Of a stretch of 64,000 nucleotides of DNA, positions 39,855-61,029 are shown piece by piece. Source of the stretch: Candidatus Poribacteria bacterium (lineage in GTDB: Bacteria > Poribacteria > WGA-4E > WGA-3G); NCBI GenBank assembly GCA_965197475.1, contig CBDANF010000002.1, forward strand, positions 640,001 through 704,000, written 5' to 3'. Every line of letters starts with the position of its first letter. The first letter of the stretch is position 1. The position numbers were made by a program, and so were the translations under genes. A model generated the notes under the pieces. That model was given only the letters and a program-made list of their open reading frames with translations. It was not told the origin of the DNA and did no database searches.

Positions 39855-42800
39855 ATGAAAAAGAGACTGTTAATCATACTGAGTTTGTTGTTAGTTTCTA
39901 CTACTTTCCTACCGAACGGTTTTGCGCAAGACTTCAACCGATGGGGTTTACCTGAAGGTGCAATAGCACGTTTGGGTAAAGGGTGGATAACGGATATGGC
40001 GTTTTCACCTGACAGAAACCAACTCGCAGTGGCGTGTTCTATCGGTATATGGCTTTACAATGTGCGCACTGGCACCGAGGAAGCCTTCCTAAAGGGACAT
40101 ACAGAACTGGTCAATTCGGTTGCTTATTCTCCAGATGGGAAAATCCTTGCAAGTGGTAGTAATGATTGGACGATTCGAATTTGGGATGTGGATAAACGAA
40201 AGCATATTAAGACACTTGAAGGTCATACGGGTAAGGTTAATTCTGTAGCGTATTCGCAGGATGGAGAGACCATTGTAAGTGGAAGTGATGATGGAATTCG
40301 GGTTTGGAATGTTGAAAACTGGAATGATAAGATACTTTATAGAAGTGAGAATGCTGGCATAGTTAACATGATGTATTCACCTGATGAAAAAACACTTACC
40401 AGTTTAAGTAAAAACGGCAAAATAGAATCATGGGATTTAACAAGTGGTGAGAAGCAATGGACTATATTAGGGTATAAAAAATCAAGAAAACTCAAATCAC
40501 TGCTACAGAATGTTATTAAATTAAGTTCATATTCACTTGATGGTAAGACATTTGCCAATTGGTCTGGTGTAGAAATGCGTTTGTATAACGTAGTCAAAGG
40601 TAATTTGGAACTTCTCTTTAAAAAATCTGAAATATCTGTTTATTCGTTAGCATTTTCTCCAAATGGCAGCACAATTGTCACTGGAAGTGATGATGGTACA
40701 ATTAGTATATGGAATACGAAGAATGGAGAGCATAAACGAACTCTTCCTGGACATTCAGGTATGGTGACATCTGTGGCATATTCCCCGGACGGTAACATTG
40801 TCGCCAGTGCAAGTTTAGATGGGACGATTCGTCTGTGGGGTGCAGTGGGCGGATTGCCAAAACGAACTTTTACGGGACATACCCGTAATTTCGATCTCCT
40901 TGCATATTCGCCAAACGGGAAAACACTTGCAAGCAGGACCAAGAACGGTAACATTTTTGTATGGGATGCCAAGACATTTAAATACAAGTTTACACTTGCT
41001 GTCCATACAAATTACAAAGATGTTCTCCGGACTGCTGAAAGGCGTAATAGGGGGACCAATACCGAAAGAATAAACGTTCCACTTGCCTATTCTCCGGATG
41101 GGACTACACTTGCAACTGCAGATATGAACAATACCATACGTTTATGGGACACAGAAAACGGTAAACTTAAACTGACTTTTAAGGCAAAAAATGATGAAGA
41201 ACAACCGCCCGATCAGAATAATCGTGTTCGCCGTCCATATACTATCACCTCGTTAGCATATTCTATAGATGGAAAGACACTTGTGGGTGGTAGTAGAGAT
41301 GGTAAGATTCAATTCTGGGACCTTGAACGTGAAGGGCATCAACAAACGTTTGCAGAGCAGAGATTTCCTGTAATTTTCTTAGGGTATCCCTTGAATGATA
41401 GGATAATTACAAGCGAGATGGTTTCAGAAATAAATATTTGGGATGTTCCGAAACAACAACTTATCCGAACAATTAACATACAACAAATAAGGGGTGGAAG
41501 GGGCGGCATAAATTCCATTTCATTTTCTCCAGATGGCAAGACGGTTGCAGATGCAAATGATGATAATAAAATATTTCTTTGGAATACTGAAACTGGAACA
41601 CTTCAACAAAAAATTTCTGTACATACAGATAAGGTTTCTTCAATTGCTTATTCACCAGACGGTAGTACGCTTGCAAGTGCAGGTGATGATAATTACATTC
41701 GTTTGTGGGATGCGGGGACTGGACAGTATAAGCGGACACTTACCGGACATTTGGGCAGTGTCACTTCAGTCGCCTTTTCTCCTGACGGGAAAACATTAGC
41801 AAGCACAAGCGATGACGGGACGATTTTGCTGTGGGATATTGCACATGTAAAGCAGGGCAATGAATCAAAACCCGCACATGAAAAATGGACAGATATATCG
41901 CAATGGAATTTGCCGGACGAGGCATCAGCACGGCTTGGAAAAGGTTTAGTAAAAGATATTGCGTATTCACCAGACGGTAACCACTTAGCAGTGGCAAGCA
42001 GTATAGGCACATGGATCTATGATATTCGCACGGGTGCCGAACGCGCCTTGTTCCCAGGACCTATGGCATCAATTGAGCAGATATCATATTCACCTGATGG
42101 TAGAATACTTGCGGGGAGAAATTCTCGTGAGATTTATTCGCTTGATGCAGTAACCGGCAAATATTTGCATACTATATCTTTGAATTCAGTCCATTCTGGT
42201 TCTGGACGTAGGACATTTATGTATTCACGTGATGGAAGCAAGCTTGTAAGTTGGGGGCATGGTGGTAGTGTACAATTGTGGGATGCCATAACTGGTCAAC
42301 ACAGACACACAATTGAGGGGACGAGTAATAGTTATTGTTTTGCGTTTTCTCCAGATGGTTCAACGATCGCATACAGCATACGCGCTATGCCAGAAATCAG
42401 CAATAAAGTGCATCTGTGGGATGGGACTACTTCAAAACACAAGAAAACTTTAACCGGACACAAGCATGGGGTTGAATCCATTATATGGGCACCAAATGGA
42501 AAAACCATAGCAAGTCTAAGTAAGCCAAATGGTTGGTCGCCCGGTTCAAGTAAAATAGATATCCAATTGTGGGATGCAGAAACAGGCAATCTTAAACACA
42601 CACTGACTTATGATGAATATGTCAGTTTAGTTACATATTCTCCTGATGGTAAGACCTTAGCTGTTGGATCAGATATGCTTATTTACTTATATGATGTTTT
42701 AAGTGGAAAACTCAAACATAAACTTTTGGGGTATGCCCCATTTGTGTTTTCACCAGATGGAAAAACAATTGCAGTTGATGGTTATATCAACACTATCAGT

Positions 42801-43838
42801 TTGTGGGATGCAGTATCTGGCAGACCCTTGCAGGCGTTCAATGGACCATTAGCAGTCACTTCACTACTATACTCACCTGACGGCACCACGCTCACAGGTG
42901 CGAATGAACACAGTATGGTTTGTGTTTGGGATGTAGACACTGCAAAACTAAAACATACTTTTGAGCATTCTGGTGATATCAGAGCTTTGGCATATTCCCC
43001 AGATAGGAAGACATTGGCATCTGGTGGGAGTGACAGTATGATCCGTCTGTGGGATGTCGCTTCAAGGACCCAAAAACTAAAATTGAATGGACCCGACTAT
43101 ATTGAGACAATGACATATTCACCTGATGGGACTACAATAGCAGCTAATGGTGAGTATAACACAGTCCTATTATTGGATGTATCAAGTGGAAACCAAAAAC
43201 AGAAATTTAAACTTGATATGCCGCATCATATTGTCCGCTCAATTGCGTATTCCCCCGATGGGAAGACATTAGCCACCTCAGGACCAGAAAATACAATTGA
43301 ATTGTGGGATGTAATGACAGGAACACTTAAAAAAATACTTACTGGACATACCAAATATGTGCGGTCGGTAGCCTATTCACCAGACGGTAAAACAATAGCG
43401 AGTGGAAGTTCAGACACAAATATTCGATTGTGGGATGCATCCACAGGCGAGCATAAACTTACGCTATCTAATAATACGCATGCTGGGTCTAAAGTGGTGT
43501 TTTCCCCAGATGGTCAGACGTTAGCCAGTACGGGTGATCACAGCAAAATTCATTTGTGGGATTTAGAGACAGGACAACTCAAATCTATACTCAAACACGG
43601 TGCAAATTCTGTAGCATATTCCCCAGATGGTGTGATATTAGCAAGTAGTGCAGGAGGTTCCATTCATTTATGGAATCCACATACTGGTAAACTGAAAAAG
43701 GTATTTTACGGACATTTTAATTATCACAATGTGAATTCGTTAGTTTTTTCACCAGATGGAAAAACGCTTGCAAGCGGTAGTAGTGATGGAACAATCCTAA
43801 TGTGGGATATAACAGAATTCAAAAATACAACTGATTAG
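39855..43838 (+). CDS. Large secreted WD40 repeat protein built from two tandem modules
   Basis: Signal peptide; more than 20 YSPDG/WD repeats; leader WxLPxxAxARLGKG occurs twice. Confidence 0.92.
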   Translation: MKKRLLIILSLLLVSTTFLPNGFAQDFNRWGLPEGAIARLGKGWITDMAFSPDRNQLAVACSIGIWLYNVRTGTEEAFLKGHTELVNSVAYSPDGKILASGSNDWTIRIWDVDKRKHIKTLEGHTGKVNSVAYSQDGETIVSGSDDGIRVWNVENWNDKILYRSENAGIVNMMYSPDEKTLTSLSKNGKIESWDLTSGEKQWTILGYKKSRKLKSLLQNVIKLSSYSLDGKTFANWSGVEMRLYNVVKGNLELLFKKSEISVYSLAFSPNGSTIVTGSDDGTISIWNTKNGEHKRTLPGHSGMVTSVAYSPDGNIVASASLDGTIRLWGAVGGLPKRTFTGHTRNFDLLAYSPNGKTLASRTKNGNIFVWDAKTFKYKFTLAVHTNYKDVLRTAERRNRGTNTERINVPLAYSPDGTTLATADMNNTIRLWDTENGKLKLTFKAKNDEEQPPDQNNRVRRPYTITSLAYSIDGKTLVGGSRDGKIQFWDLEREGHQQTFAEQRFPVIFLGYPLNDRIITSEMVSEINIWDVPKQQLIRTINIQQIRGGRGGINSISFSPDGKTVADANDDNKIFLWNTETGTLQQKISVHTDKVSSIAYSPDGSTLASAGDDNYIRLWDAGTGQYKRTLTGHLGSVTSVAFSPDGKTLASTSDDGTILLWDIAHVKQGNESKPAHEKWTDISQWNLPDEASARLGKGLVKDIAYSPDGNHLAVASSIGTWIYDIRTGAERALFPGPMASIEQISYSPDGRILAGRNSREIYSLDAVTGKYLHTISLNSVHSGSGRRTFMYSRDGSKLVSWGHGGSVQLWDAITGQHRHTIEGTSNSYCFAFSPDGSTIAYSIRAMPEISNKVHLWDGTTSKHKKTLTGHKHGVESIIWAPNGKTIASLSKPNGWSPGSSKIDIQLWDAETGNLKHTLTYDEYVSLVTYSPDGKTLAVGSDMLIYLYDVLSGKLKHKLLGYAPFVFSPDGKTIAVDGYINTISLWDAVSGRPLQAFNGPLAVTSLLYSPDGTTLTGANEHSMVCVWDVDTAKLKHTFEHSGDIRALAYSPDRKTLASGGSDSMIRLWDVASRTQKLKLNGPDYIETMTYSPDGTTIAANGEYNTVLLLDVSSGNQKQKFKLDMPHHIVRSIAYSPDGKTLATSGPENTIELWDVMTGTLKKILTGHTKYVRSVAYSPDGKTIASGSSDTNIRLWDASTGEHKLTLSNNTHAGSKVVFSPDGQTLASTGDHSKIHLWDLETGQLKSILKHGANSVAYSPDGVILASSAGGSIHLWNPHTGKLKKVFYGHFNYHNVNSLVFSPDGKTLASGSSDGTILMWDITEFKNTTD

Positions 43839-46014: not shown

Positions 46015-46326
46015 TTGGATAGCCAAACAGTTCTTAGCAAACACTTCATCAAACAGAAACTCTTAGACAATCGGGATACACTGAAAAAGTATGGTGTCAA
46101 ACAGATTGGGTTGTCCGGATCCTACGTGAACGGGACTGCACATGCCTCAAGTGACATTGATCTACTTGTTGAATTAGAAAGGTTGACTTTTCACGACTAT
46201 ATGGGATTGACTCTTTACCTTGAAGATCTGTTTGAGAAAAAGGTTGATCTTGTCACCGCTAAATCGATTAAACCGCACCTGAAACCACATATAGAAAAAG
46301 AGGTGGAATATGTCACGGGCCTATGA
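46015..46326 (+). CDS. Minimal nucleotidyltransferase (MNT) antitoxin
   Basis: GSY...SDIDLLV, KVDLV; overlaps the HEPN gene. Confidence 0.88.
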   Translation: MDSQTVLSKHFIKQKLLDNRDTLKKYGVKQIGLSGSYVNGTAHASSDIDLLVELERLTFHDYMGLTLYLEDLFEKKVDLVTAKSIKPHLKPHIEKEVEYVTGL

Positions 46327-46627
46327 CGTATATTTCCAAGATATAATAGAAGCGATCAACCGTATTGAGTCGTATGTTCAAAGCACTACTCGCTTCCAGT
46401 TTGAAATCGATCGGATGCGATATGATGCAGTCGTCCGTAACCTTGAGATAATAGGTGAAGCAGTCAAGCGGATTCCCGACTTGATTCGGGAGAGTTACCC
46501 AAGTGTTGCTTGGCGAAAGATAGCAGGTTTAAGAGACAGACTGATTCATGCATACTTTGATATTGACACCGACATTATCTGGGATGTGGTGCAATCGGAA
46601 CTCCCGATTTTGAAGAGCGAAGTTTAG
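46310..46627 (+). CDS. HEPN (DUF86) RNase toxin
   Basis: DAVVRNLEIIGEA, RDRLIHAY (Rx4H), IIWDVV. Confidence 0.88.
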   Translation: MSRAYDVYFQDIIEAINRIESYVQSTTRFQFEIDRMRYDAVVRNLEIIGEAVKRIPDLIRESYPSVAWRKIAGLRDRLIHAYFDIDTDIIWDVVQSELPILKSEV

Positions 46628-46937
46628 CGTATTCTTGATGAGCATAGCAGATAATTATATTGATTTGTAAACAAGGTTTGTAACCACACCATCCAAAAGA
46701 AAACCCTCTTATCCGATTGATTAATATCTTGCATCCGTCTTCACTTTTCCAGTGTTATTTATGCTTTTACACTAAGTCACTTCATTAATCTCCTAACTTC
46801 AAACAATTAAGAATATCTCAATAAGATTTGAGTGTTCAATAAAATTAATTCCAAAACCGAAATTTTCTGTCATTTTTTTAAACCGTTTTCCCAAATTTCC
46901 CCCTCTTTATAACTGAAATCTAATTGGGAACCTACTC

Positions 46938-49900
46938 ATGCACTACAATTTTGTCACTCCAAACAATCTGACAGATGAAGAACTGGTTCGACTTGTCCAA
47001 AGTCGCGATGAAGCAGCATTCGCGGAATTAATGTCTCGTTATAGTCCACGAATCTGGAACGTGGTTGTCGAAAATTCAAGACAACGTCGGGATGCGGAAG
47101 AGATTCTTATGGACATCTGGATGGTTGTATGGGATAACATTATCGGTTTACGAAAAGCGGAAAGTTTTAGCGGATGGTTACGGCGAATAGCCTACACCGC
47201 TTGCAACAGATACTACGGTTCTGGATCGCATCGGCATAGTGAAATTATACTGAGTTACGAAGATTTAGCTTTTCAGATTGATAGAGAAGCTGAGCAGCGT
47301 TTTCAGGATGTGAGGCTTCGATCAGATGCAAGAGAGGCTGTGCATAACCTTCCACAAAGGGTCCGTTCTGTAGCAATATTGTACTATCTCGAACTATGGA
47401 ATGTTAAAGAAATTGCAGAAGAACTCAACTTACCGATCGGCACAGTCAAGACGAAGCTAAGTGAAATAAGACACCTTTTACGCCAAGAGTTTGAGGTGGA
47501 ACCTACAAGGGGGAAAACGATGTCACAGGAACAGGAAAAATCTGAAAGTTTACGAACCAAATTTAAAGTTATAGGAATCGGTGGAGCGGGTTGCAATGTT
47601 GTTAAACACATGATAGAAGACGGTTTGGCAGACATTGAATTCTGTGCTGTTGATACAGACACGGAAACACTTAGTGCATGCCACGGTGCAACACAAGTGC
47701 AAATAGGTGTCAACACCGTTCAAGGACAAAGCACGGACGGGAGTCTGGAACTGGGAAGAAGAGCTGCTGCGGAAAGCATAGATGAACTTCGATCTATCGT
47801 CTCAGATGCCAAGATGGTTATCGTTATCGCTGGCATGGGTGGTGGAACGGGCACTGGTGTCGCTCCGGTGGTTGCATCTCTGGCACGAGAACATGGCGCA
47901 TTAACAGTTTGCTTTGTAACCCGTCCGTTCGATTCTGAAGGAGAACACCGTTCAGAACAGGCAGGATACGGAGTGCGGGAACTGCAAAGCGGTACACACC
48001 CACGGGCAGATGCTCTCATCGTTGTGCCTAACCAACGGATATTGGACTTGATCGACCGAGAATTACCGATGCAAGAAGCGTTTCAACAAAGCGATGAAAT
48101 CCTGCTACACGGTATTAAAAACATTACAGATCTCCTTGTAGAAATGGGCGAAATAAGCATTAACTTTGATGATATTCAGGAAACGCTGCGCGACCAAGGG
48201 ACTGTCCTGATGGGTATCGGAAAAGCAACAGGTGAAAATAGGGCAACAATTGCAGCAAAGAACGCTATCTCCTCACCCTTGCTTGAAGGGAACAGCATTG
48301 CCGGTGCTGTTGGAATGATTATAAATATCGCTTCTCCACCAGATTTCACTATGCAGGAATTGGACCAAGCCATGAAAGTAATTTGTAAAACATGTGAAAA
48401 TGCCCAACCCCTCTTCGGATTAATCTTCAAAGATGAAATGGGAGCTAGCGATGAAGTCTTGGTGACTGTAATGGCAAGCGGGTTTGAGTCACAAAGTGAT
48501 CAGACACCACCGATTTCTTCCAGCAAGGGCGGCGACACTCCCAGACAAGACAGTGTTATTTCACCTTCAACCGCTTCAGAATTTGTTCATCTACACAATC
48601 ACAGTGAATATAGCCTGTTGGACGGTGCGTGCCGAATCCCGGATATGGTGCAGTGGGCAATTGAGAACAGTTCGCCTGCTGTCGCACTTACCGACCACGG
48701 TAATATGTTCGGTGCATGGGAATTTTACAACACTGCCAAAGCAGCAGGTGTGAACCCAATTGTTGGATGTGAAGTGTATGTCGAAACAGAAAACACAAGA
48801 ACAGATGGGAATTGCCAATGTTCACCGTCCCATCTCACCCTGCTCGCAGAGGACGCTACAGGCTATCACAATCTCTTAGAATTAACATCACTCGGATATA
48901 CGCAAGGTTTCCACAGTAAACCCCGTATCAATCTGGAAATGCTGCGTGAAAATCATGGTGGTATAATAGCATTGACAGGATGCATCAACGGATTAGTCCC
49001 AAAGTTAATCTGTTCTGATCAAAGAGACGAAGCGGTTCGCAACCTCTTGCAATTGAGAGACATCATGGGAGCAGACAACCTATTTGTCGAAATTCAAAAC
49101 CACTATATTGATGAGGAATTGGCAGCATATCCGGTGATGGTGGAATTTGCAAATGAGTTCAATCTCCCTATTGTCGGCACAAACGATTGTCACTATCTCC
49201 GAAAATCCGACCACCGTATGCACGAGATCCTTCTCTGTATCCAGAGAAAGAAAACCGTCAATGACCCTGAACGGATGCGGTTTGACAATCATTTCTATTT
49301 TAAGAATGTTGACGAAATGCGCGTGGTGCTTAAGGATTATCCACCCGAAGCGATCATCAATACTGTTGAAATTGCCAACCGGTGTAATCTGAGACTTGAT
49401 TACGGCAAAAGTATGATACCTGAATTTGAAGTGCCAGAAGGACATACCAACGACAGTTATCTGAAAGAACTTTGCTATGACGGTTTGCGACAAAAATATG
49501 GGGGACATCTTTCCGAACCGATTCGCAAGCGGTTGGAGTACGAACTTGACATTATCCAACAAACCGGCCACGCTAGCTATTTCCTAATTGTTGCGGATTA
49601 CGTCAGCTATGCGAACAAACAGGGATATCTACTCTCTGCTCGTGGTTCTGCTGCTGGTAGTCTTGTGCTTTATGCGCTCAGTGTAATTAATTTCAATCCG
49701 ATGGAACATGGATGTCTGTTTGAAAGATTTTTAAACCTTGACAGGATGAATCCTCCAGACATTGATATAGATTTCGCTGATCATGCACGTGATGATGTGA
49801 TCAATTACCTTGTGAGAAAATACGGTCATGATTCTGTCGGTAAAGTTGCTACCTTTGCTACGTTAGGGGCAAAAGCTGCTATCAAAGATGTCGGACGTGC

Positions 49901-51224
49901 CCTTGAAATCCCTCTTGATAACGTCGCTAAGTTGACAGGATTAATTCCATCCATACCTGGCATCACGCTTGACGAAGCATTGGAAAAGACACCAGATTTT
50001 CAGGAACTTGCGGAACTCCCTGAAAATAGGGAATTGATAGAGCTTAGCAAGGCGGTAGAAGGTATGAAACGGCATGTTTCATGTCATGCCTCTGCAATCG
50101 TGGTTTCACACGGTTCTCTGATGAATTATGTACCGCTATTCAAGGATAGAAATGGACAAGTTGCAACACAGTTTGAAGGAAAAACGGTTGAAGATGTCGG
50201 CATCATTAAATTTGATACGCTTGGTGTCCGAAGTCTTTCTGAGGTTGCTGACTGTCTCAATATGATTCAAGAAAATCATGGTCGCAAGATTGCACTTGAA
50301 GATATTCCGCTTGACGATGAAAAGACCTATTCACTCATTAGTAAAGGGTTGATTGCTGGGCTATTCCAACTCGAAACTTCTCCCGGTATGTATAAGTTGG
50401 TTATAGAACTCAAGCCGGAAAACTTTGCGGTATTTTCCGCAATTCCCGCACTCTATCGCCCTGGTCCATTGGAAAGTGGTATAATGCAGCAGTTTATTGA
50501 TCGGAAAAACGGATTACAACCTATTGCGTATATACATCCCTCGTTTGAAAATGCGCTCAAAAGCACTTTCGGTGTCTGTATCTATCAGGAACAAGTGATG
50601 CAGATTGCATGTGATACAGCAGGTTTCACACTTGGTGAGGCAGATACCCTCCGCGGGGCAATGGGAAAAAAGAAAGTAGATGTAATCAAAGAACAACGAT
50701 CCAAATTCATTGATGGAGCGGTAGAAAATGGAATTCAAAAAAATGAGGCTGGAGAGGTTTTTGAACATCTCATATCTATAGGTAGATATGCCTTCAACAA
50801 ATCGCACTCCGTCGCTTATTCTATGTTAGCCTACCGAATGGCGTATCTGAAAACGCACTATCCCCATGAATTTATGGCGGCGATAATGAGTGGAGAGGCA
50901 GCGGATAAAGAAAAGATTAAGCGTTACCGAGCTGAATGTGTGAAACTTGCTGACTTCCTCGGTGTAGAAATCAATCTTATTCCGTTAGATATCAACAGCA
51001 GTGAGAAAAACTTTGTTGTGGAAGGCAACGATATCCGTTTCGGACTTGTTGCTGTTGAACGTATTAGTGATGCAGCAATAGATTCAATTCTAACGGAAAG
51101 AAATCGTGACGGTTTATTTACATCACTCCAAGATTTTCGTGATCGTTTGGATTCAACAGAGGTGGATGAAACCGTTATTGAAAACCTCATCAAGTCCGGT
51201 GCATTTAACACTCTTTCTGAATAA
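46938..51224 (+). CDS. Fusion protein: ECF sigma-70 factor + FtsZ + DNA polymerase III alpha (DnaE) core
   Basis: aa 1-185 DAEEILMDIW, FSGWLRRIA, EIAEELNLPIGTVKTKL; aa about 208-516 VIGIGGAG, GGGTGTG; aa about 547-1428 HLHNHSEYSLLDG, RGSAAGS, PDIDIDF, KFDTLG, FNKSH; one uninterrupted frame. Confidence 0.9.
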   Translation: MHYNFVTPNNLTDEELVRLVQSRDEAAFAELMSRYSPRIWNVVVENSRQRRDAEEILMDIWMVVWDNIIGLRKAESFSGWLRRIAYTACNRYYGSGSHRHSEIILSYEDLAFQIDREAEQRFQDVRLRSDAREAVHNLPQRVRSVAILYYLELWNVKEIAEELNLPIGTVKTKLSEIRHLLRQEFEVEPTRGKTMSQEQEKSESLRTKFKVIGIGGAGCNVVKHMIEDGLADIEFCAVDTDTETLSACHGATQVQIGVNTVQGQSTDGSLELGRRAAAESIDELRSIVSDAKMVIVIAGMGGGTGTGVAPVVASLAREHGALTVCFVTRPFDSEGEHRSEQAGYGVRELQSGTHPRADALIVVPNQRILDLIDRELPMQEAFQQSDEILLHGIKNITDLLVEMGEISINFDDIQETLRDQGTVLMGIGKATGENRATIAAKNAISSPLLEGNSIAGAVGMIINIASPPDFTMQELDQAMKVICKTCENAQPLFGLIFKDEMGASDEVLVTVMASGFESQSDQTPPISSSKGGDTPRQDSVISPSTASEFVHLHNHSEYSLLDGACRIPDMVQWAIENSSPAVALTDHGNMFGAWEFYNTAKAAGVNPIVGCEVYVETENTRTDGNCQCSPSHLTLLAEDATGYHNLLELTSLGYTQGFHSKPRINLEMLRENHGGIIALTGCINGLVPKLICSDQRDEAVRNLLQLRDIMGADNLFVEIQNHYIDEELAAYPVMVEFANEFNLPIVGTNDCHYLRKSDHRMHEILLCIQRKKTVNDPERMRFDNHFYFKNVDEMRVVLKDYPPEAIINTVEIANRCNLRLDYGKSMIPEFEVPEGHTNDSYLKELCYDGLRQKYGGHLSEPIRKRLEYELDIIQQTGHASYFLIVADYVSYANKQGYLLSARGSAAGSLVLYALSVINFNPMEHGCLFERFLNLDRMNPPDIDIDFADHARDDVINYLVRKYGHDSVGKVATFATLGAKAAIKDVGRALEIPLDNVAKLTGLIPSIPGITLDEALEKTPDFQELAELPENRELIELSKAVEGMKRHVSCHASAIVVSHGSLMNYVPLFKDRNGQVATQFEGKTVEDVGIIKFDTLGVRSLSEVADCLNMIQENHGRKIALEDIPLDDEKTYSLISKGLIAGLFQLETSPGMYKLVIELKPENFAVFSAIPALYRPGPLESGIMQQFIDRKNGLQPIAYIHPSFENALKSTFGVCIYQEQVMQIACDTAGFTLGEADTLRGAMGKKKVDVIKEQRSKFIDGAVENGIQKNEAGEVFEHLISIGRYAFNKSHSVAYSMLAYRMAYLKTHYPHEFMAAIMSGEAADKEKIKRYRAECVKLADFLGVEINLIPLDINSSEKNFVVEGNDIRFGLVAVERISDAAIDSILTERNRDGLFTSLQDFRDRLDSTEVDETVIENLIKSGAFNTLSE

Positions 51225-51270: not shown

Positions 51271-51351
51271 TTCTGTACTGATCCTAATCCAATATCCCAA
51301 TTGCAATCATCTTTTTAGATAACTTGCATAAAGTGTTAACTTTTGTTAAAA

Positions 51352-51549
51352 TAACGTGAGTTTGATAATAATATTGGATGGACGCAGTCCGATCAAAAGT
51401 CCCCCTGATAAGGGGGATTTAGGGGGTTAAAAGTGCCTCAAAAATTGCTTTTCGCGCCCAAAAATACCCTTTTTTGCCAAATTTGCGTCCGTCTTGAATA
51501 TTATTAAAGTCCATTTGACTCAATGAATTCTTTTATCAAGCTCACGTTA
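51352..51549. mobile_element. Nested MITE-like structure containing a G/C-run palindrome
   Basis: Outer IRs TAACGTGAG[T/C]TTGATAA (51352-51368, 51533-51549); inner imperfect IRs aataatatt..ggacgca; core ccccctgataagggggatttagggggtt. Confidence 0.65.
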
Positions 51550-51608
51550 AAATAGTATGACTAACATTCTAAGGACATTGCAAAAGAAAATAACGCTAAT
51601 TTCCTTTT

Positions 51609-52265
51609 ATGAACATTCAGAGAATTAGGAAAGTGACACAGTTAATTCACCGTATTACACAAAAAGACGTTAATTTTCCGGTATCAATAAATGCATTTTT
51701 AAAAACAGATACACCTGAAGTGATATGGGCGCGTGGGAATTTAGACCTATTATCTAATAAAAGCGATGCCTCAAAAGAGGACTTATGGGCACTATTCTGT
51801 TCCAGTAAATGTCCTGCCGAGATTATCTTGAAAACACACGATTTAGTTCAGGAATTCAAGGCAGAAGGTGTCTCAACAATCGGTGGATTTCATTCACCTG
51901 TTGAACAAGAGTGCTTACGCGTCTTATTGCGTGGCTCACAACCGATCTTATTATGTCCCGCACGAAGTATTGAAAACATGCAATTGAAGTCGGGGTGGCG
52001 AAAGGCTTATTTTGATAGAAGGCTCCTGATCTTATCTATATTTTGTGAAAAAAGAATTTCCGCAGAACGAGCGTACAAACGTAACCACTTCGTTGCAGCA
52101 CTCGCAAGTAAGGTATTAATTGCACATGCCGCTGAAGACAGTAAAACTTTGGAATTTACACAAACAATATTGAAATGGGGAAAACCTGTTTTCACTTTTA
52201 ATTCATCATCAAATAAAGCACTTATTCAACTCGGGGTAAAACCTTATTCAAGGGATTTACCCTAA
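51609..52265 (+). CDS. Short DprA/Smf-like Rossmann-fold protein
   Basis: P.VIWARGNLDLL, GGFHSPVE, RNHFVAALASKVLIAHA, GKPVF. Confidence 0.8.
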   Translation: MNIQRIRKVTQLIHRITQKDVNFPVSINAFLKTDTPEVIWARGNLDLLSNKSDASKEDLWALFCSSKCPAEIILKTHDLVQEFKAEGVSTIGGFHSPVEQECLRVLLRGSQPILLCPARSIENMQLKSGWRKAYFDRRLLILSIFCEKRISAERAYKRNHFVAALASKVLIAHAAEDSKTLEFTQTILKWGKPVFTFNSSSNKALIQLGVKPYSRDLP

Positions 52266-52299
52266 ACTATTGACCAACTACTAAAAAGGAATACTTTAT

Positions 52300-55200
52300 A
52301 TGCCACGAATCTTTGATAACATAGACCAACCGCTCCTCCAAGCACTGCAGCAAACCCTCGAATCCTCTACCCATGCAGACTTCTGTGTCGGATATTTTAA
52401 CCTCAGAGGATGGAGAAGACTCGCAAATTACATTGAAAATTGGCAAGGTGGCGATGGCGAATGCTGCCGTCTACTCGTAGGAATGCAGCGACTCCCCGAT
52501 GAAGAACTACGTCACACCATGCGTATTTTTAAAGATACAGACAGAATTGATAACCAGACAGCCAACCGTTTAAAACGAAAGTTAGCAGAAGAATTTCGCG
52601 AGCAATTAACTGTTGGCATACCTACCCGTGATGACGAAATCGGTCTAAGACAGTTAGCACGCCAACTTCGGCACGGAAAGGTAAAGGTAAAATTATATCT
52701 TCAACATCCCCTTCATGCCAAACTTTATCTACTTTACCGCCAAGACCTCGCCGCACCGATTGTCGGTTACCTCGGCAGCAGCAACCTCACCCTTGCCGGA
52801 CTTTCACAGCAAGGCGAACTCAACGTTGATGTGCTCGATTCAGACGCATGCCAAAAGTTAGAGGTGTGGTTTGAAGACAGGTGGAGCGACAAGCGGTGCA
52901 TTGATATATCTAAGGAATTAGTCGAAATTATTGACGAGAGTTGGGCGCGTGAAGAACTCATTCCACCATATCACATCTACATTAAAATGGCGTATCACCT
53001 ATCCCAGGAAGCAAGGGCGGGGTTGAACGAATTTCGGATTCCACGCGAATTTGAAGATACGCTCTTTGATTTTCAAACTGCTGCTGTTAAAATCGCAGCA
53101 CATCATCTTAACAGACGCGGCGGTGTTCTTATCGGAGACGTTGTGGGTCTCGGCAAAACGCTGATGGGAACAGCACTTGCACGCATACAGGAAGACGATT
53201 ACGACCTTGAAACACTTATTATTTGTCCGAAGAATCTCGTCAGCATGTGGGAATTTTACCGTGACGAATACCGCTTGCGCGCAAGGGTGCTTTCAATAAG
53301 TCGAGTTCAGAACGTGTTGCCGACGCTTCGACGTTATCGACTCGTGATGATTGATGAAAGCCACAACCTCAGAAACCGTGAAGGCAAACGTTACCGCGCG
53401 ATTCAAGAATATATCCATGAAAATGAGAGCAAGGTTATCTTACTCTCTGCAACCCCTTACAACAAAACCTTCCTTGATCTCTCAAACCAACTTCGCCTCT
53501 TTGTTGATGAAACCGAAGGTATTGGAATCCGACCAGAACAATACATCAAAGCGTTAGGCGGCGAAATCGGTTTTAATCGCGAACACCAAAGTGGTATTCG
53601 CACCCTTGCTGCGTTTGAACATAGTGAATTCATTGACGATTGGCGTGAATTGATGCGGCGTTATCTTGTCCGCAGAACCCGTAGTTTTATCATGCAAAAC
53701 TATGCTGAAGTAGACCCCGACACGGAACGAAAATTCCTTTCTTTTGCCGATGGAACGCGGTCCTACTTCCCAACACGTGTACCAAAAACAGTTAAGTTTA
53801 CAATTGATGACCAAGACCCTGATGACACCTATGCACAGTTATACTCTTCTTACGTCGTTAACATAATAAGCAAACTCAAACTGGCTCGATACGGGCTTGC
53901 AAACTATATTGACATATCGGATTCTGAACCACTGACAGAAGCTGAAGAGGAACAATTGCAAGACCTTTCACGTGGTGGACAACGGTTGATGGGCTTCTGT
54001 CGCACAAACCTTTTCAAACGACTTGAAAGTAGTGGTAAAGCATTCCTACAATCTGTTGATCGGCATATCCTACGAAACTATATCTTTCTCCATGCAATAG
54101 AGAACAACGAATCATTCCCGATCGGTGGTCTTGATGCTTCAATGCTTGATTCCCGTTTCAGTGATAAAGACTCCGATGATGTTAACCTAATTTCAGGTAT
54201 CTCAGATGATGAAGATGATGAGTTGATTGATACGAGCGATTCTCAATCCAACTTGTACACTACTGAAAACTATAGACAACGCGCTGCCCGTATTTATCAA
54301 CTTTACTTGACCCAGTATAAAACTCGGTTTAAGTGGATTCGTTCAGATCTATTTCTGCCGATACTTAAGGATGAGCTCACCAAAGATGCAAACGCACTGA
54401 TTCAAATCTTGCAACAATATGGCGAATGGGATGTTAAAAAAGATGCAAAACTCAACGCACTTGAGGAACTATTAACACAAATACATCCAGACACAAAAGT
54501 CTTGGTTTTCACGCAATTTGCAGATACTGTAAAATATTTGACAGGCGAACTTAAAGTACGAGGTATCACGCAAATAGAAAAAGCAACCGGTGATTCAGCA
54601 AATCCAACCGAATTGGCATGCCGATTCAGTCCTATCAGCAATAATAGAGAAGGTATCCCCACAGAAGATATATTGCGCGTTCTCATCAGCACAGATGTAC
54701 TAAGTGAAGGGCAGAATTTACAGGACTGTGCAATTGTCGTAAACTATGATCTGCCGTGGGCAATTATACGGTTAGTCCAACGTGCTGGTCGCGTTGACCG
54801 TATTGGTCAAACGGCGGAAGAAATATTGTGCTACTCATTTTTACCAGCGGAAGGTGTTGAACGTATTATCAATCTACGCGGACGCGTCCGAGCACGTCTG
54901 CAACAGAACGCTGAAGTGGTAGGCACAGATGAGGCATTTTTTGAGGATGACGGTGAAGATGGTAACACAGCAATCATTAACCTTTATAATGAGGAGGCAG
55001 GTTTGCTTGACGATGATATGGATAACGACGTTGATCTCGCCTCTCACGCCTATCAGATTTGGAAAAATGCTATTACCGAAGACCCTGACTTAGAAAAAAT
55101 TATTACAAAACTCCCCTCTGTTGTCTATTCAACTAAATCACATACGCCTACTGATACGCAACCGATAGGTGCACTGGTGTATATTCGAACTGGAGAAGAT

Positions 55201-55686
55201 AATGATGCGCTTGCATGGATTGATAAAAACGGAGAAAGTGTGACAGAATCACAGTTCACCATTCTACAAGCTGCAGCGTGCGAACCGGAGACAGAAGCAC
55301 TTCAACCCCTTGAGAAACACCACGACCTCGTGCAAGAAGCCGCGAAACTCATCGTATCTGAGGAGCGATCAGTTGGTGGGCAACTCGGCAGACCGTCGGG
55401 AGCGCGGTTTCGCACTTATGAAAGGTTGAAGGATTACGCCTCAGAGGTTGAAGGCACGCTATTTGATACGCCAGAACTCAAACAGGTTATAGAAAATGTC
55501 TATCGTTACCCCTTACGTCCAGTAGCAACCGATACCCTCAACCGTCAACTCCGCATCGGTATTACTAACGAGAACCTTGTTAAGTTAGTGATTGATTTAT
55601 GGAATGATGGTCGACTTTGTATTGTTGAAGAAAAACGCGAAATGCGAGAACCCAAGATCGTCTGTTCATTAGGGCTTTCTTCCTAA
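52300..55686 (+). CDS. PLD-nuclease domain + SNF2-family helicase (restriction-type subunit)
   Basis: VGYF, HAKLYL, GSSNLT; DVVGLGKT, DESHN, SATP, SEGQNLQ, QRAGRVDRIGQ. Confidence 0.9.
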   Translation: MPRIFDNIDQPLLQALQQTLESSTHADFCVGYFNLRGWRRLANYIENWQGGDGECCRLLVGMQRLPDEELRHTMRIFKDTDRIDNQTANRLKRKLAEEFREQLTVGIPTRDDEIGLRQLARQLRHGKVKVKLYLQHPLHAKLYLLYRQDLAAPIVGYLGSSNLTLAGLSQQGELNVDVLDSDACQKLEVWFEDRWSDKRCIDISKELVEIIDESWAREELIPPYHIYIKMAYHLSQEARAGLNEFRIPREFEDTLFDFQTAAVKIAAHHLNRRGGVLIGDVVGLGKTLMGTALARIQEDDYDLETLIICPKNLVSMWEFYRDEYRLRARVLSISRVQNVLPTLRRYRLVMIDESHNLRNREGKRYRAIQEYIHENESKVILLSATPYNKTFLDLSNQLRLFVDETEGIGIRPEQYIKALGGEIGFNREHQSGIRTLAAFEHSEFIDDWRELMRRYLVRRTRSFIMQNYAEVDPDTERKFLSFADGTRSYFPTRVPKTVKFTIDDQDPDDTYAQLYSSYVVNIISKLKLARYGLANYIDISDSEPLTEAEEEQLQDLSRGGQRLMGFCRTNLFKRLESSGKAFLQSVDRHILRNYIFLHAIENNESFPIGGLDASMLDSRFSDKDSDDVNLISGISDDEDDELIDTSDSQSNLYTTENYRQRAARIYQLYLTQYKTRFKWIRSDLFLPILKDELTKDANALIQILQQYGEWDVKKDAKLNALEELLTQIHPDTKVLVFTQFADTVKYLTGELKVRGITQIEKATGDSANPTELACRFSPISNNREGIPTEDILRVLISTDVLSEGQNLQDCAIVVNYDLPWAIIRLVQRAGRVDRIGQTAEEILCYSFLPAEGVERIINLRGRVRARLQQNAEVVGTDEAFFEDDGEDGNTAIINLYNEEAGLLDDDMDNDVDLASHAYQIWKNAITEDPDLEKIITKLPSVVYSTKSHTPTDTQPIGALVYIRTGEDNDALAWIDKNGESVTESQFTILQAAACEPETEALQPLEKHHDLVQEAAKLIVSEERSVGGQLGRPSGARFRTYERLKDYASEVEGTLFDTPELKQVIENVYRYPLRPVATDTLNRQLRIGITNENLVKLVIDLWNDGRLCIVEEKREMREPKIVCSLGLSS

Positions 55687-55699
55687 TAAGGGTGTCTCA

Positions 55700-56092
55700 T
55701 TACAACACATCGGCCGGTTCCCGTCTTCCCCTATCTGTTTGATCAAAATCTGTATCAAAACTGATAAGTTGCAGATCATATTTCTTGGCGACAGCATATT
55801 GGTATGCATCATCAAAGTCAAGACTGAATTGCTGAGCGGGTTGTCCTAACGTCTTGTGCTCTTCTGGAGACAGTGAGAGGACACCGACACCGTTAATTAC
55901 TATATCTTCTAAAAATGAGACGAAAAGCGGAAAATTTTTCAACCGGAACAGAATAATACCGATGGAATGAAGAGACAAATCCGTTATAAAGATTGTCCTC
56001 AAATCAATGGATTGTAAGAATAATCGAACTTCGTTTGTCCTATTTTGCCCTAACAGAGATTCCAGGAAGATGTTGGTGTCTACAAAATACAC
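55700..56092 (-). CDS. PIN-domain (VapC-like) toxin
   Basis: VDTNIFLE, LDFDDAYQ, ISFDTDFD. Confidence 0.88.
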   Translation of the reverse strand: MYFVDTNIFLESLLGQNRTNEVRLFLQSIDLRTIFITDLSLHSIGIILFRLKNFPLFVSFLEDIVINGVGVLSLSPEEHKTLGQPAQQFSLDFDDAYQYAVAKKYDLQLISFDTDFDQTDRGRREPADVL

Positions 56093-56299
56093 TTAATCTC
56101 TCCAATCCGACGCCTTTTTCTGAAGTTCAAGTGCTGTGTACTGCCCTTGATATTCTATTAAGCCACCAATCCACTCCAATTTCGGTTTCTTTTTTTCTTC
56201 TGAAACCTTTTTTGTTAACAAGGAATCAATAAAATTTAGCACTTCTTCGTAGTCCTTTGGTGAAAGATGCTTAAGTTTCTCAATAATGGTAGTTTGCAT
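56093..56299 (-). CDS. Antitoxin (DUF2281-like)
   Basis: EEVLNFIDSLL...W.GGL...ELQKKASDWR; abuts the PIN gene; GAGGA RBS. Confidence 0.75.
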   Translation of the reverse strand: MQTTIIEKLKHLSPKDYEEVLNFIDSLLTKKVSEEKKKPKLEWIGGLIEYQGQYTALELQKKASDWRD

Positions 56300-56414
56300 G
56301 GTCATTTCCTCGTTAGGTTTTTGCAATTGATAAAAAAAGCATGCTTAAAAGTATACCACACAACATACGGAAATAAAAGAAAAATTACTATATCAAATAA
56401 CGAGTAGTTAAACC

Positions 56415-56443
56415 TTGAATTCCATGTCTAAGTCATGTATAAT
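56415..56443 (+). promoter_or_regulatory. Sigma70-type promoter upstream of 56480 and the methyltransferase
   Basis: TTGAAT-N17-TATAAT. Confidence 0.55.
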
Positions 56444-56479
56444 TGGCATTAACATAATCCCTACTGCCAGAGGTATCAG

Positions 56480-56812
56480 ATGAAAAAACCTAAACTTGTC
56501 GTTGGACATCTCATGAACGACGAATTACTCGTCAAATCTGTTACGACCTCAAAGTCCTTTGATTGGCTCAAATGGTTAGAGGCAGAAGAGCTGGTTGAGT
56601 TTTTCGCGGAATTGCTCAAGATGGTAACACAAATCTCAGAAGGCAAAAAAGATGCTAAAACACTTTCTATTTTTCTCTCCGAATGGCGTGAAACGGCATT
56701 GATTAATTCAGAGCCAGATGTCTTGGCAGATATGGCTGAGGCTGAACAGGAATTGGATGCTGGCGGCGGAATACCCTGGTCACAGATCAAGAAGGAATTG
56801 GATGCTGTCTGA
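56480..56812 (+). CDS. Antitoxin-like small protein without an adjacent toxin
   Basis: WLKWL...EFFAEL...EWRETA and AEQELDAGGGIPWSQIK tail typical of type II antitoxins. Confidence 0.6.
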   Translation: MKKPKLVVGHLMNDELLVKSVTTSKSFDWLKWLEAEELVEFFAELLKMVTQISEGKKDAKTLSIFLSEWRETALINSEPDVLADMAEAEQELDAGGGIPWSQIKKELDAV

Positions 56813-56860
56813 ATCGCGGATTATCGCGGATTATCGCGGATGACGCGGATTTCGCGGATT
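56808..56860 (+). repeat. Short tandem repeat (CGCGGATT-like, 9-10 bp units, 5 copies)
   Basis: tctgaatcgcggattatcgcggattatcgcggatgacgcggatttcgcggatt; related copy at 8941-8970. Confidence 0.75.
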
Positions 56861-56917
56861 ATGTTGGATTTCGTACCCTCAAACCAAATACAATACTACT
56901 GACGCAGGAAACCCTTT

Positions 56918-59900
56918 ATGCAAATTGACTTTGAACAAACGCGCGAATACCTCAAAGAATTCAAATTTGAAGACCTTTTTATTGAGGAACTCGGTTGGGA
57001 TAACCCTCCTGAAACGTTGAACGTTACTATAGACGAAACCGAATATGTTCTTACTGCAATTGCCCACAAACGCGGCATGGTTGTCTACGAATGTCCACAA
57101 ACTACATCTCAGGAAAACATTCCAGTCTACGCTACCCGCCGCAAGATTCAAAAGCAAGTCGCCAAATCCACCCACGAGAACTTTATCATCTACACCAACG
57201 CAGAGAAAACCACACAAATTTGGCAGTGGGTTAAAAGAGAACAGGGAAAACCTGATGCATGCCGTGAACACCGTTACGAAATCTGGCAGTCAGGTGATTC
57301 TCTGATTCAGAAGTTGCAAAACATTGCCTTTAGTTTTGAAGAGGAAGAGGAAATTTCTCTCTTTAGCGTGATTGAACGCGTCGGAACAGCCTTTTACGCT
57401 GAACGGGTCACCAAAAAGTTTTATGACCGTTTCAAGAAGGAGCATGACGCATTCCTCGAATTTCTCAATGGGATTCCAGATGAAGAGATGCAAAAATGGT
57501 ATGTTTCTGTGATGCTCAACCGCCTCATGTTTATCTACTTTATCCAAAAGAAAGGTTTTCTGAATAGTGATATAAACTATCTGCAAACGAAGCTAAGAGA
57601 AACACAACAGAACGGTACGGATCTATACTACAAAGAATTCCTGTGCCCGCTATTCTTTGAAGGGTTTGCGAAGCCTGAAAACGAAAGAGATAGGGATATT
57701 TCAGACCAACTCGGTACGATCCCTTATCTCAACGGCGGTATCTTCCAAAAACATCAACTTGAGACGCTTCACGGTGAAAACATTGAGATTCCCGACACAG
57801 CATTTAAGAAACTGTTTAGTTTCTTTGAGCAATACCAGTGGCACCTTGATGATCGTCAACTGCGGAACGATAACGAAATCAACCCTGATGTGCTCGGATA
57901 CATCTTTGAAAAATACATCAACCAGAAACAGATGGGCGCATACTATACCAAAGAGGACATCACGGAGTACATCAGCAAAAACACCATCATTCCGTTTTTA
58001 TTTGACGCTGCGAAGAAATCATGTAAAATTGCATTTGAAGGTGATGCATCTGTCTGGAAACTACTACAAGAAGACCCAGACAGGTATATCTATGATGCAG
58101 TCAAAAAAGGTGTTAAATTAGATTTGCCAGAGGATATTACTGCTGGAATTGACGATGTCTCCAAGCGGACCGAATGGAACGAACGCGCCCCCGAAGGAGT
58201 TGATGAAATCGCCCTACCGACAGAAATCTGGCGGGAGGTTGTTGCACGCAGACAACGGCATGAACAAATCCGATCCAAACTCGCAAACGGTAAGATAGAC
58301 AACATCAACGATCTGATTACTTATAACCTCAATATCCGTCAATTCGCACAGGATGTCATCGAAAATTGTGAGGGACCTGAACTGCTCCGCGCTTTCTGGA
58401 AAGCCATCACTGAAGTAACAGTCCTTGACCCGACCTGCGGCTCCGGGGCGTTCTTATTTGCCGCACTGAACATCCTTGAACCACTCTATGAGGCATGCCT
58501 TGATCGGATGCAAGTTTTCCTTGACGAACTCATAACGGTTTCCCCTCTGACAAGGGGGGCAGGGGGGTTAGAGAATATTCCTAAAAAACCGCACGCCCTG
58601 AAATACAAAGACTTCCGCCAAACCCTTGACCGCATTGCGGAACACCCTAACCGCGATTATTTTGTCCTCAAATCTATTATCATCAACAATCTTTACGGTG
58701 TAGACATTATGGAGGAGGCAATTGAGATTTGCAAGCTGCGCCTTTTCCTCAAAATGGTGGCACAGATTGAGGATGTCCAACAGATTGAACCGTTGCCGGA
58801 TATTGACTTTAACATTCAGGCAGGCAATACCCTTGTCGGCTTTGCAACTGATGACGAGATAGAGTCTGCATTTTCCGGTAGGCTTGATTTTGAAAATGCA
58901 ATGGAGCGTATTATAGAAAAAGCTGAGGATATTAAGGAGCGATTCACTCTATTTCGCCAACAGCAAACGGAATTAGGCGGTACAGTAACACAAGCTGACA
59001 AACAGGTGTTACAGAGTGAAATTGGGACATTGGGAGACGAACTCAATGAATACCTTGCTGACATATATGATGTTGATATGAACGAACTGTCTGATTACGA
59101 AGAGTGGCTAAATTCACACAAACCTTTCCACTGGTTTATTGCGTTTTACGGTATTCTTCAAGATGGCGGGTTTGATGTGATTATTGGTAATCCACCGTAT
59201 CTTGAATTAAGAGAGGTAGACTACAGGCCACCTACAAGCCTAATTAGTTATGAAACTAAGACGATCCACGCAATGTGTATGGATCGTAGTTTACAGCTTT
59301 TAATTCAACACGGCTGCATGAGCATGATTGTACCTTCAGCTTTAGTTTCTACACAGCGAATGCGAATTGTCCAAAGTCTTTTGGAAAAAAGTCGTAATGT
59401 TTGGTACGCCAACTATTCATGGCGTCCGGGTAAACTGTTTGATACAGTAAATCGTGCCCTGACTATTTTTGTTGTTGCTCCTTCTAATCAGGGACAGACT
59501 TTTTCTACGAACTATCAGAAATGGACTTCCGAAAATAGGGATTTACTGATGCGGGGTGTTGATTATGCTGAAATTCCGCGTAATAGAACAGCTTTTTGGG
59601 CACCGAAGTTGGGAACGGAAATTGAAAACGTTTTACTCGAAAAATTTATGAGGGTAAAAGCTGTCTTAAAGTTGTTCATGGCAAAAAGTGGAAATCGAGT
59701 TTACTACCGTAATTCAGGCGGATTATATTGGAAGGTATTTACAGACTTTCCTCCTGCGTTCAAAGTCAACGGAGAAACTGGACACTCTACACGTGAGACC
59801 TCTTTCTCATTAGCACAAAGAGGAATGACAAAATCATCTATTGCTATCCTAAGCAGCAACGTTTTTTGGTGGTGGTATACAGTTACTTCGGATTGTCGTT

Positions 59901-60627: not shown

Positions 60628-60794
60628 GCGTTGATAGAAGATTTTTAATTTCAACTCTTGGAAATTATATGGATTTTGGGAATTGAGGCATCAAGTAAAT
60701 AGGTTATATCAACCCTTGCTTCAGAACTTTAAATCGTTTGCACGCAACGCCAATTTCTGTTAAAATTGTATACAAAGGAGTATCCAAACATCTC

Positions 60795-60998
60795 ATGAAA
60801 ACACCACAACGCACAAACACAACCAGCGAAAAACAGGAGCAACGTCTTGTCTTTCTTTTGTATGACGAAGAAGATCTACTTGATTGGGACACTGCTATAA
60901 CCACGCCACCGCCGCGTCAATCGGGAACAATCCGGGTTAAGCTGGTATACAAAGGACGTAGCAAACCGTTTCCTGTTGAAAATTTTTGGGAAGAATAG
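60795..60998 (+). CDS. Small hypothetical protein
   Basis: AAGGAG RBS before ATG 60795; 67 aa. Confidence 0.55.
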   Translation: MKTPQRTNTTSEKQEQRLVFLLYDEEDLLDWDTAITTPPPRQSGTIRVKLVYKGRSKPFPVENFWEE

Positions 60999-61029
60999 GT
61001 AAACAAGTAAATGTTGGAAGGAGACGCAA

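Follow-up and report, generated by a model that had tools for sequence, protein, structure and literature searches.

An ECF-type sigma factor, a divergent FtsZ paralogue and a shortened DnaE core joined in one conserved protein of Candidatus Poribacteria

A three-part gene and its junctions

The stretch of DNA analysed here (referred to as the window; 64,000 nucleotides, positions 640,001 to 704,000 of contig CBDANF010000002.1, assembly GCA_965197475.1) stems from a Candidatus Poribacteria genome of the sponge-symbiont type, which comprises 5.7 Mb on 3 contigs and belongs to a family labelled f1 in the following. At 46938..51224 on the forward strand of the window lies a single open reading frame (ORF) of 1428 amino acids, in which translation and comparison with Pfam and NCBIfam identify an extracytoplasmic function (ECF)-type sigma factor, an FtsZ-derived module and a shortened DnaE core. 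One conserved polypeptide which unites paralogues of division, replication and transcription proteins is unexpected, and the three-way combination would surprise specialists.

The ECF-type sigma-70 module comprises residues 8-190 (46959..47507, on the forward strand like all features of this gene), with sigma2 at residues 31-93 and sigma4 at residues 132-182. It scores 64.5 bits against the sigma70-ECF profile TIGR02937 (cut-off 42.9) and 33.1 bits against Sigma70_r4_2 of Pfam (cut-off 25.7), while the match to Sigma70_r2, at 21.3 bits, lies under its own 24-bit cut-off; the module has the sigma2 and sigma4 regions alone, as an ECF sigma factor does. The FtsZ-derived module, which is the main subject of this work, follows at residues 208-518 and corresponds exactly to 47559..48490. 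It is recognized by the Pfam domains Tubulin (PF00091, residues 210-372, 126.5 bits) and FtsZ_C (PF12327, residues 421-517, 69.9 bits), by alignments, and by the ftsZ profile TIGR00065, which it matches with 298.6 bits over residues 196-525 (cut-off 295.2). A variable linker of 29 residues, rich in Ser, Thr, Pro, Gly and Gln (residues 519-547, 48492..48578), then leads into the DnaE core at residues 548-1428 (48579..51224), which consists of PHP, palm, thumb, fingers and helix-hairpin-helix (HhH) regions. The linker was delimited by column conservation and junction sequences, and none of its 29 columns reaches a conservation of 95%.

The DnaE module reaches 1040 bits with NF004226 (cut-off 1002), covering profile positions 3-885 of 1146 with residues 546-1427. 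It contains the PHP domain and the catalytic Asp residues of this enzyme family, and at least 104 of 111 aligned fusions retain the His/Asp motifs of PHP (HLHNHS) as well as the catalytic motifs PDIDIDF (49755-49772) and KFD (50208-50216). The end of the ORF falls about 30 residues short of QMNLF, the canonical clamp-binding motif, and neither an OB fold nor a tau-binding domain is included. As judged from these sequence features, the module looks like an active, replisome-independent polymerase/exonuclease core. A C-terminal DnaE remnant was not found downstream by tblastn, and the genome encodes a separate full-length dnaE (1178 aa) on another contig; on both grounds, and because no intein or Cys-start follows the end of the ORF, a split-intein DnaE of the cyanobacterial type was rejected. 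As a separate observation, contigs of three sequencing runs match the window from the DnaE start at 48579 on and diverge upstream of it, which fits canonical dnaE or related strains with a conserved PHP start.

The same succession of sigma, FtsZ and DnaE domains was found in at least 110 clusters at 90% identity, all from sources named Candidatus Poribacteria, by a length-matched search with the FtsZ region. In databases these clusters carry the names 'DNA polymerase III subunit alpha' or 'cell division protein FtsZ', and automatic annotation could mistake the fusion genes for an additional replicase or division gene. Across the 111 fusions, columns conserved at 95% or more make up 42% of the sigma module, 39-53% of sigma, PHP and polymerase core, 21% of the FtsZ module and 14% of the C-terminal HhH stretch. 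Both domain junctions are spanned by Logan contigs of two runs, X1 and X2 (X2 records 9 and 10, X1 record 5), and these show 0 differences; the same holds at the T7 codons of the FtsZ module (X1 record 4 and X2 record 12, covering 48054-48335/48341). These contigs are fragmented, and the two runs may be source samples of the assembly, so that they do not constitute independent support. That an assembly chimera or a missed frameshift has united three separate genes, as might be suspected in a metagenome-type assembly with an estimated contamination of 6.97%, has next to no probability left, and such an artefact is excluded, since the identical continuous frame recurs across many assemblies, in more than 100 clusters, and in single-contig genomes, and since both junctions are bridged without differences.

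Divergence of the FtsZ module from canonical FtsZ

A preliminary description of this DNA had held that the FtsZ module keeps the GTP-binding signature of FtsZ, that its T3 and T7 loops are degenerate and its C-terminal peptide is replaced by the linker, and that it may thus be a nucleotide-binding pseudo-FtsZ, poor in hydrolysis or polymerisation, which would fit a role as sensor, decoy or filament cap rather than in division. At the level of residues, translation and alignments bear this account out. Residues were brought into register by alignment to the canonical FtsZ of the same genome (58% identity) and to the staphylococcal structures 4m8i and 3vo8 (E-value of about 1e-77). The T1 loop of the fused module reads GIGGAGCN (residues 213-220, 47574-47597), and the T4 loop GMGGGTGTG (residues 299-307, 47832-47858) is intact and conforms to the tubulin signature GGGTG(T/S)G. 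From residue 237 the fused module reads AVDTD where the canonical protein reads AVNTD (Asn-to-Asp codon at 47652-47654). In T3 (residues 263-271, 47724-47750), GQSTDGSLE stands in place of canonical GLGAGANPE and departs from the pattern G-x-G-(A/S)-G. In T7 (residues 404-413, 48147-48176), GEISINFDDI stands in place of GEINVDFADV, whereby the N-x-D-x-x-D pattern is broken, the conserved Asn and the first Asp being changed and the last Asp alone retained. In passages of PMC8456036, these three T7 residues are named EcFtsZ N207, D209 and D212, the T7 synergy loop is described as completing the GTPase site of the neighbouring subunit, and T3 as contacting the gamma-phosphate.

The C-terminal peptide is absent from the entire fusion protein, as judged by a regular expression which finds DIPAFLR in the canonical protein of the same genome. 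Peptides of this type bind anchors of the FtsA/ZipA type and tie FtsZ to the membrane. In the fusion, the linker takes the place of both the C-terminal linker of FtsZ and this conserved peptide. The canonical ftsZ of the genome lies on another contig, where it adjoins ftsA, and its product combines AVNTD, GLGAGANPE and GEINVDFADV with the terminal DIPAFLR; these agree with the canonical strings given in the preliminary description. The fusion gene is situated outside any ftsA-ftsZ context, following metabolic and ABC-transporter genes. In order to determine where the substitutions belong, canonical FtsZs of 29 Poribacteria genomes (the present one and 28 further ones) were compared. VNTD is found in 29 of 29, Gly at the fifth T3 position in at least 28, and both GEINVDFADV and a terminal (D/E)(I/M)P(A/S)FLR in all 18 canonical FtsZs of family f1. 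Because the canonical FtsZs of these genomes do not carry them, the substitutions are specific to the fused copy, and the refutation named in the preliminary description, that the lineage's canonical FtsZ would show the same changes, does not apply. A complex prediction of the canonical FtsZ core with the fused module (residues 205-520) gave scores of 0.27 and 0.22, below the mark of 0.32, and is used as evidence in neither direction.

The FtsZ module is the fastest-evolving part of the protein; purifying selection on it persists, and it is not a pseudogene. Over 91 pairs of 14 genomes, mean identity amounts to 0.585 for fused FtsZ, 0.83 for canonical FtsZ and 0.67 for the sigma module, and to 0.74 for DnaE (28 pairs). 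The ratio of nonsynonymous to synonymous substitution rates (dN/dS, Nei-Gojobori) in 11 closer pairs is 0.14-0.40 for fused and 0.016-0.086 for canonical FtsZ, with 0.06-0.155 for sigma and 0.10-0.14 for DnaE in the same pairs. Fused FtsZ evolves about 2.5 times faster than canonical FtsZ (2-4 times across the measures), under a constraint that is 3-4 times more relaxed. The relaxation is concentrated in the H7-T7 region, where divergence relative to canonical FtsZ is 4.1-fold, as compared with 2.2-2.3-fold in the two subdomains. Canonical FtsZ has 113 invariant or nearly invariant columns, of which 59 are kept in the fused family (at 90% or more), 49 are relaxed and 5 switched; the copy in the window differs at 25 of the 113.

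Motif tallies over 123 fused copies separate changes of the family from changes of this protein. At the fifth T3 position 103 copies have Asp, 11 have Asn and only 5 have Gly, and at the fourth T1 position 64% of the copies have Asp, with Gly retained in the window. DTD in place of NTD occurs in about 29%, namely in the genus-level clade of the window's copy and in a single copy from g4, and T4 is almost invariant. In T7, 93 copies retain the Asn, 114 the first and 121 the last Asp, and 88 have all three. The nearest relative (P0003, 81% identical in the FtsZ module) reads GEINIDFDDI, and because of this the changes from Asn to Ser and from Asp to Asn are private to the genome studied here. 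The T7 change thus reads as a recent event in this genome alone, although the Asp-to-Asn change recurs in a few other lineages and a strongly degenerate T7 is found in genome G024 (CEITVGIDDI). At the other extreme, the early-branching copy of genome G061 is nearly canonical and keeps T1, T3, T4 and T7. Three changes come close to being family-wide: Asp for Gly in T3, Asp as the fourth T1 residue (64%) and a missing tail. Since tail loss and the T3 Asp are near family-wide and the T7 change is local, the term 'degenerate T7' fits this protein and not the family. The proposal of a pseudo-FtsZ without a division role consequently stands in part: it agrees with a second copy beside a full canonical ftsZ, with the lost tail and with the faster evolution, whereas a degenerate T7 as a property of the fusion family has to be given up. 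Poor hydrolysis or polymerisation is a prediction from the sequence, and the present data do not favour any one of the sensor, decoy and capping roles.

Origin of the fusion and the sigma cassette

The fusion follows the boundaries of one family. When 151 genomes of the phylum were scanned, at least two FtsZ-family matches were present in 95 of 99 other f1 genomes, as compared with 5 of 51 genomes of other families. When a query of sigma plus FtsZ was used and best E-values were read approximately, about 77 of the 99 f1 genomes gave a full sigma-FtsZ match, about 10 gave as their best match only a sigma module with half an FtsZ, and about 12 gave nothing beyond canonical FtsZ; by the same approximate reading, 0 of the 51 genomes that do not belong to f1 had a sigma-FtsZ match. 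The same upstream genes (xylose-isomerase-like, enolase-superfamily, TatD and ABC permease) precede the fusion gene in 14 of 14 loci, drawn from three genera, and are joined in 10 of the 14 by a gene of the short-chain dehydrogenase/reductase (SDR) family. In a FastTree phylogeny of 154 FtsZ domains, with local SH-like supports and no bootstrap, the fused copies form one group (support 90) within the clade of canonical f1 FtsZs (support 98) and are split by genus. The fused DnaE is 72% identical to canonical DnaE of f1, 71% to that of its own genome and 60-61% to canonical DnaE of families f2 and f3. Because of this tree placement and these DnaE identities, both modules trace back to ftsZ and dnaE of the family itself, duplicated near its base. 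Altogether, the fusion is real, old, vertically inherited and confined to one family of Poribacteria. Gene conversion with the canonical genes was considered as well and left no sign, the fused DnaE and FtsZ being no closer to the copies of their own genome than to those of other f1 genomes.

Within this family the modules have different fates. Genes for sigma-FtsZ only, of about 550-630 aa, occupy the same syntenic locus in several genomes. In one of them (L027:6277-7962, genome G130), what is left of the PHP start of DnaE stands in mutated form at the end (KFVHFPNYSEYNMLNES, followed by a stop), which shows a secondary loss of DnaE in that lineage. The presence or absence of the DnaE HhH end requires many changes on the tree, and DnaE was lost repeatedly while sigma-FtsZ was retained. 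The sigma-FtsZ pair, and not DnaE, is the persistent core. Furthermore, many f1 genomes encode a paralogue in which the sigma cassette is joined to the N-terminal GTPase half of FtsZ (in other genomes, L023:6377-7597, L024:6969-8168 and L025:6499-7713); it has canonical T1-T6 loops and ends just short of T7, and in these listed matches the distance to canonical ftsZ is about 40-60 kb. In the genome of the window this paralogue was not found. A further record, P0126 (502 aa), which may be truncated, joins a sigma module of 79% identity straight to PHP with no FtsZ in between.

The sigma module also occurs with partners of other kinds. Contig C3 of the same genome carries two paralogues of the sigma cassette (L007:1477-3111 and L008:1483-3186, 57-60% identical), whose partners are a CBM9-like domain and a WD40 propeller and which share the upstream element and the junction start signal described below. 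At least 8 more distant ECF sigma factors with long C-terminal extensions are encoded in the genome, 5 of them with extensions of the beta-propeller type (WD40 or BNR/sortilin). The sigma cassette is thus constant and its C-terminal partner variable. Also on contig C3 (2767728-2780697), four genes of about 1000 aa stand in tandem, each starting with an ECF-sigma match; according to Pfam, three of them combine sigma with BNR/sortilin-type or WD40 propeller extensions, and the fourth has a TAA within the sigma match. No recognizable anti-sigma gene was present among the conserved neighbours of the fusion.

Two elements accompany the cassette at its start and at its end. The first is a conserved promoter-like element or 5' leader of about 65 nt (46873..46937), composed of a T-run, AAACC, 16-19 nt, C(C/A)CTCTTTA and AAATCTAATTGGGAA, followed by the ATG. 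It precedes the start codon of the fusion in 14 of 14 syntenic loci and is found also before the paralogues L007, L008, L023, L024 and L025. In its strict form it matches the 5.7-Mb genome twice, both times before sigma-cassette genes, with 0 matches in a reversed-sequence control; looser forms, searched in the same genome by regular expression, are no commoner than in that control. A simple scan directly upstream of the ORF detected no sigma-70 consensus promoter. Taken together, it is a reasonable inference from sequence that the element is an autoregulated ECF-type promoter with its leader. The second is a candidate internal start at the sigma/FtsZ junction (47505..47522), where a purine run resembling a Shine-Dalgarno (SD) sequence, AAGGGGGA, precedes the ATG of Met195. 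This Met is invariant in 58 of 58 aligned fusions, within a linker that is otherwise variable, and the SD-like motif stands before the junction ATG in 19 of 19 loci as compared with 60 of 368 other in-frame ATGs. The FtsZ/DnaE joint, unlike the sigma/FtsZ joint, lacks an SD and ATG signal, and its linker holds neither Met nor SD. Such conservation suggests that a sigma-less FtsZ-DnaE isoform may also be made from Met195.

The surroundings of the gene in this genome differ from those of its relatives. Between the fusion gene and a comF-like gene (61568-62305) and smc (62412 onward) lies an island of about 10 kb (51300-61500), which is absent from related genomes, where comF/smc come directly after the fusion. 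It encodes a PsyrA/DprA-like protein (51609-52265), an HKD(PLD)+SNF2 helicase (52300-55686), a PIN protein on the reverse strand (55700-56092) and a type IIG restriction-methylase (56918-60196; PADLOC, 1027 bits), and it is probably a defence island. On the other side, a nucleotidyltransferase/HepT toxin-antitoxin pair of the MNT-HEPN type (46015-46627) is inserted between the ABC permease gene and the fusion; its first gene matches the PADLOC candidate PDC-S09, and the pair is lacking at this position in 13 related loci. Farther upstream, 3 kb from the fusion, a protein of 1327 aa consists entirely of WD40 repeats (39855-43838), and WD40 proteins (cluster c17) recur near sigma-cassette genes in related loci.

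Interpretation and relation to known systems

The reading to which we would give an even chance is that a repurposed FtsZ paralogue, the middle module of a three-part protein, extends an ECF sigma factor in a regulatory or adaptor role. By its motifs and context, the FtsZ module is probably not part of the division ring. By analogy with other ECF sigma factors, the FtsZ and DnaE modules would act as a C-terminal extension which gates a sigma factor with no recognizable anti-sigma gene beside it. Self-association that depends on nucleotide, or association with genuine FtsZ, could control or localize the sigma factor and the polymerase tethered to it. A copy with S407 and N409 in T7, as in the window, would at most make contact with a neighbouring subunit but not trigger its GTP hydrolysis. 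The sigma-less FtsZ-DnaE isoform from Met195 might pair with the full-length protein or compete against it.

Several results weigh against this reading. Most orthologues, as tallied above, keep a canonical T7, and the G061 copy keeps canonical T1, T3, T4 and T7; because of this, the family overall may still hydrolyse GTP and polymerise, and an active cytoskeletal role would fit as well as a switch. The near-invariant catalytic and PHP residues of DnaE suggest an enzymatic job, which a purely regulatory model leaves unexplained. Moreover, no regulon emerged, the upstream element not being enriched elsewhere in the genome.

The best placed of the alternatives, though unlikely, is an active cytoskeletal tether, in which a GTP-hydrolysing FtsZ module would co-assemble with FtsZ and bring a clamp-independent polymerase/exonuclease together with the sigma factor to filaments or to the division site; the T7 changes seen in this genome would be tolerated or a local loss. 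Such a function would account for the T7 pattern N..D..D in 88 of 123 copies and the nearly invariant T4, for the conserved DnaE catalytic and PHP residues, and for an FtsZ module that still exceeds the TIGR00065 cut-off; in addition, the short flexible linker to DnaE sits where canonical FtsZ links to its membrane anchors. It is at odds with the Asp in the gamma-phosphate loop T3 in the great majority of copies, with the frequent Asp at the fourth T1 position, with the fact that H7-T7 is the most relaxed region, with the repeated loss of DnaE and of its HhH end, and with a T7 in the window that has neither the Asn nor the first Asp.

Also improbable, and second among the alternatives, is an integrated decoy or guard, in which the FtsZ and DnaE modules would be baits for attackers sent by phages or competitors, and binding of an attacker would free or activate the sigma factor and thereby a defence or stress regulon. 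The bait-like modules do derive from essential genes of the lineage itself, evolution of the FtsZ module is fast, with changes specific to lineages and with domains lost repeatedly, the partners of the sigma cassette vary (FtsZ, FtsZ half, PHP/DnaE, WD40 and CBM9-like), and the gene adjoins a defence island in this genome. However, the fusion matches no PADLOC model, the island and the MNT/HepT pair are insertions which related genomes lack, so that the adjacency is not conserved, and no effector or regulon is known. A dN/dS well under 1 in 11 of 11 pairs, computed pairwise with no site-level test, likewise speaks against it. In its widest form, which we consider equally doubtful, the idea amounts to a Poribacteria-specific system in which an ECF sigma cassette, equipped with its own promoter/leader and an internal start at the joint, would be covalently linked to duplicated cell-cycle machines (FtsZ, DnaE) as built-in baits or state sensors. 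If this were true, the integrity or activity of the division and replication apparatus would be read straight into transcription, be it as a bacterial 'integrated decoy' surveillance or as a hard-wired link between the cell cycle and a sigma factor.

Less probable again is a fading relic, that is, an FtsZ module which has become a functionless spacer between sigma and DnaE and is heading for loss. It is the least conserved of the folded modules by the share of conserved columns given above, it is heavily degenerate in some lineages, such as that of G024, and P0126 dispenses with it. The dN/dS range of 0.14-0.40, which holds in 11 of 11 pairs, argues otherwise, as do the canonical-invariant columns that are still retained, 59 out of 113, and the absence of stops and frameshifts in more than 100 orthologues. 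Besides, the module that is usually lost is DnaE, while sigma-FtsZ stays.

Under the preferred reading of a regulatory or adaptor extension, the family offers a natural series of FtsZ variants, from near-canonical through T3-switched and T7-degenerate forms to half-FtsZ, which selection would maintain for a task outside division. Since the host organisms are uncultured, this function can be approached only heterologously. We found no published account of a sigma-FtsZ, sigma-DnaE or sigma-FtsZ-DnaE protein, although its ECF group could still be contained in the supplementary tables of PMC7826278; the main texts of the ECF classification papers PMC7826278 and PMC7671368 mention neither FtsZ, tubulin or 'polymerase III' nor Poribacteria, and PMC13732431, on FtsZ1, mentions neither sigma factors nor fusion or fused proteins nor Poribacteria.

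Each module has recognizable counterparts among known systems. With canonical FtsZ (TIGR00065; structures 4m8i, 3vo8 and 2vam) the middle module shares the Tubulin and FtsZ_C domains and an intact GGGTGTG, and it differs in lacking the C-terminal peptide and the ftsA-ftsZ context, in its altered T3 and, in this genome, in a T7 without Asn and first Asp. With DnaE, the alpha subunit of Pol III (NF004226 / TIGR00594), the C-terminal module has in common PHP, palm, fingers and HhH together with the catalytic Asp residues and the metal ligands of PHP, whereas its truncation leaves out the clamp-binding motif, the OB fold and the tau-binding domain. Additional truncated FtsZs have been described in Hyphomicrobiales, where such paralogues (FtsZ1 and FtsZ3 of Agrobacterium tumefaciens) are reported to co-polymerise with the essential FtsZ (10.1101/412759) and can tune division; continuous expression of FtsZ1 is reported to inhibit division (PMC13732431). 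The likeness lies in extra truncated copies of the GTPase domain beside an essential full-length FtsZ, while the poribacterial copy differs in its independent origin within one family, in its position between an ECF sigma factor and a DnaE core, and in the T3 change from Gly to Asp.

A parallel for the overall design is provided by those ECF sigma factors that carry an extension at the C-terminus. In ECF41 (SnoaL-like), ECF42 (TPR), ECF57 (WD40-like) and ECF238 (CorE, Cys-rich), such extensions gate the sigma factor by conformational change or protein interaction, as passages of PMC8999054 report. The fusion resembles these groups, as they are described there, in the combination of sigma2-sigma4 with a fused C-terminal domain and in that no separate anti-sigma gene is recognizable beside it. 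It differs from them in that its extension of about 1230 residues is made of FtsZ and DnaE paralogues and includes none of the SnoaL, TPR, WD40 or Cys-rich domains, and would thus represent a new and very large class of ECF C-terminal extension.

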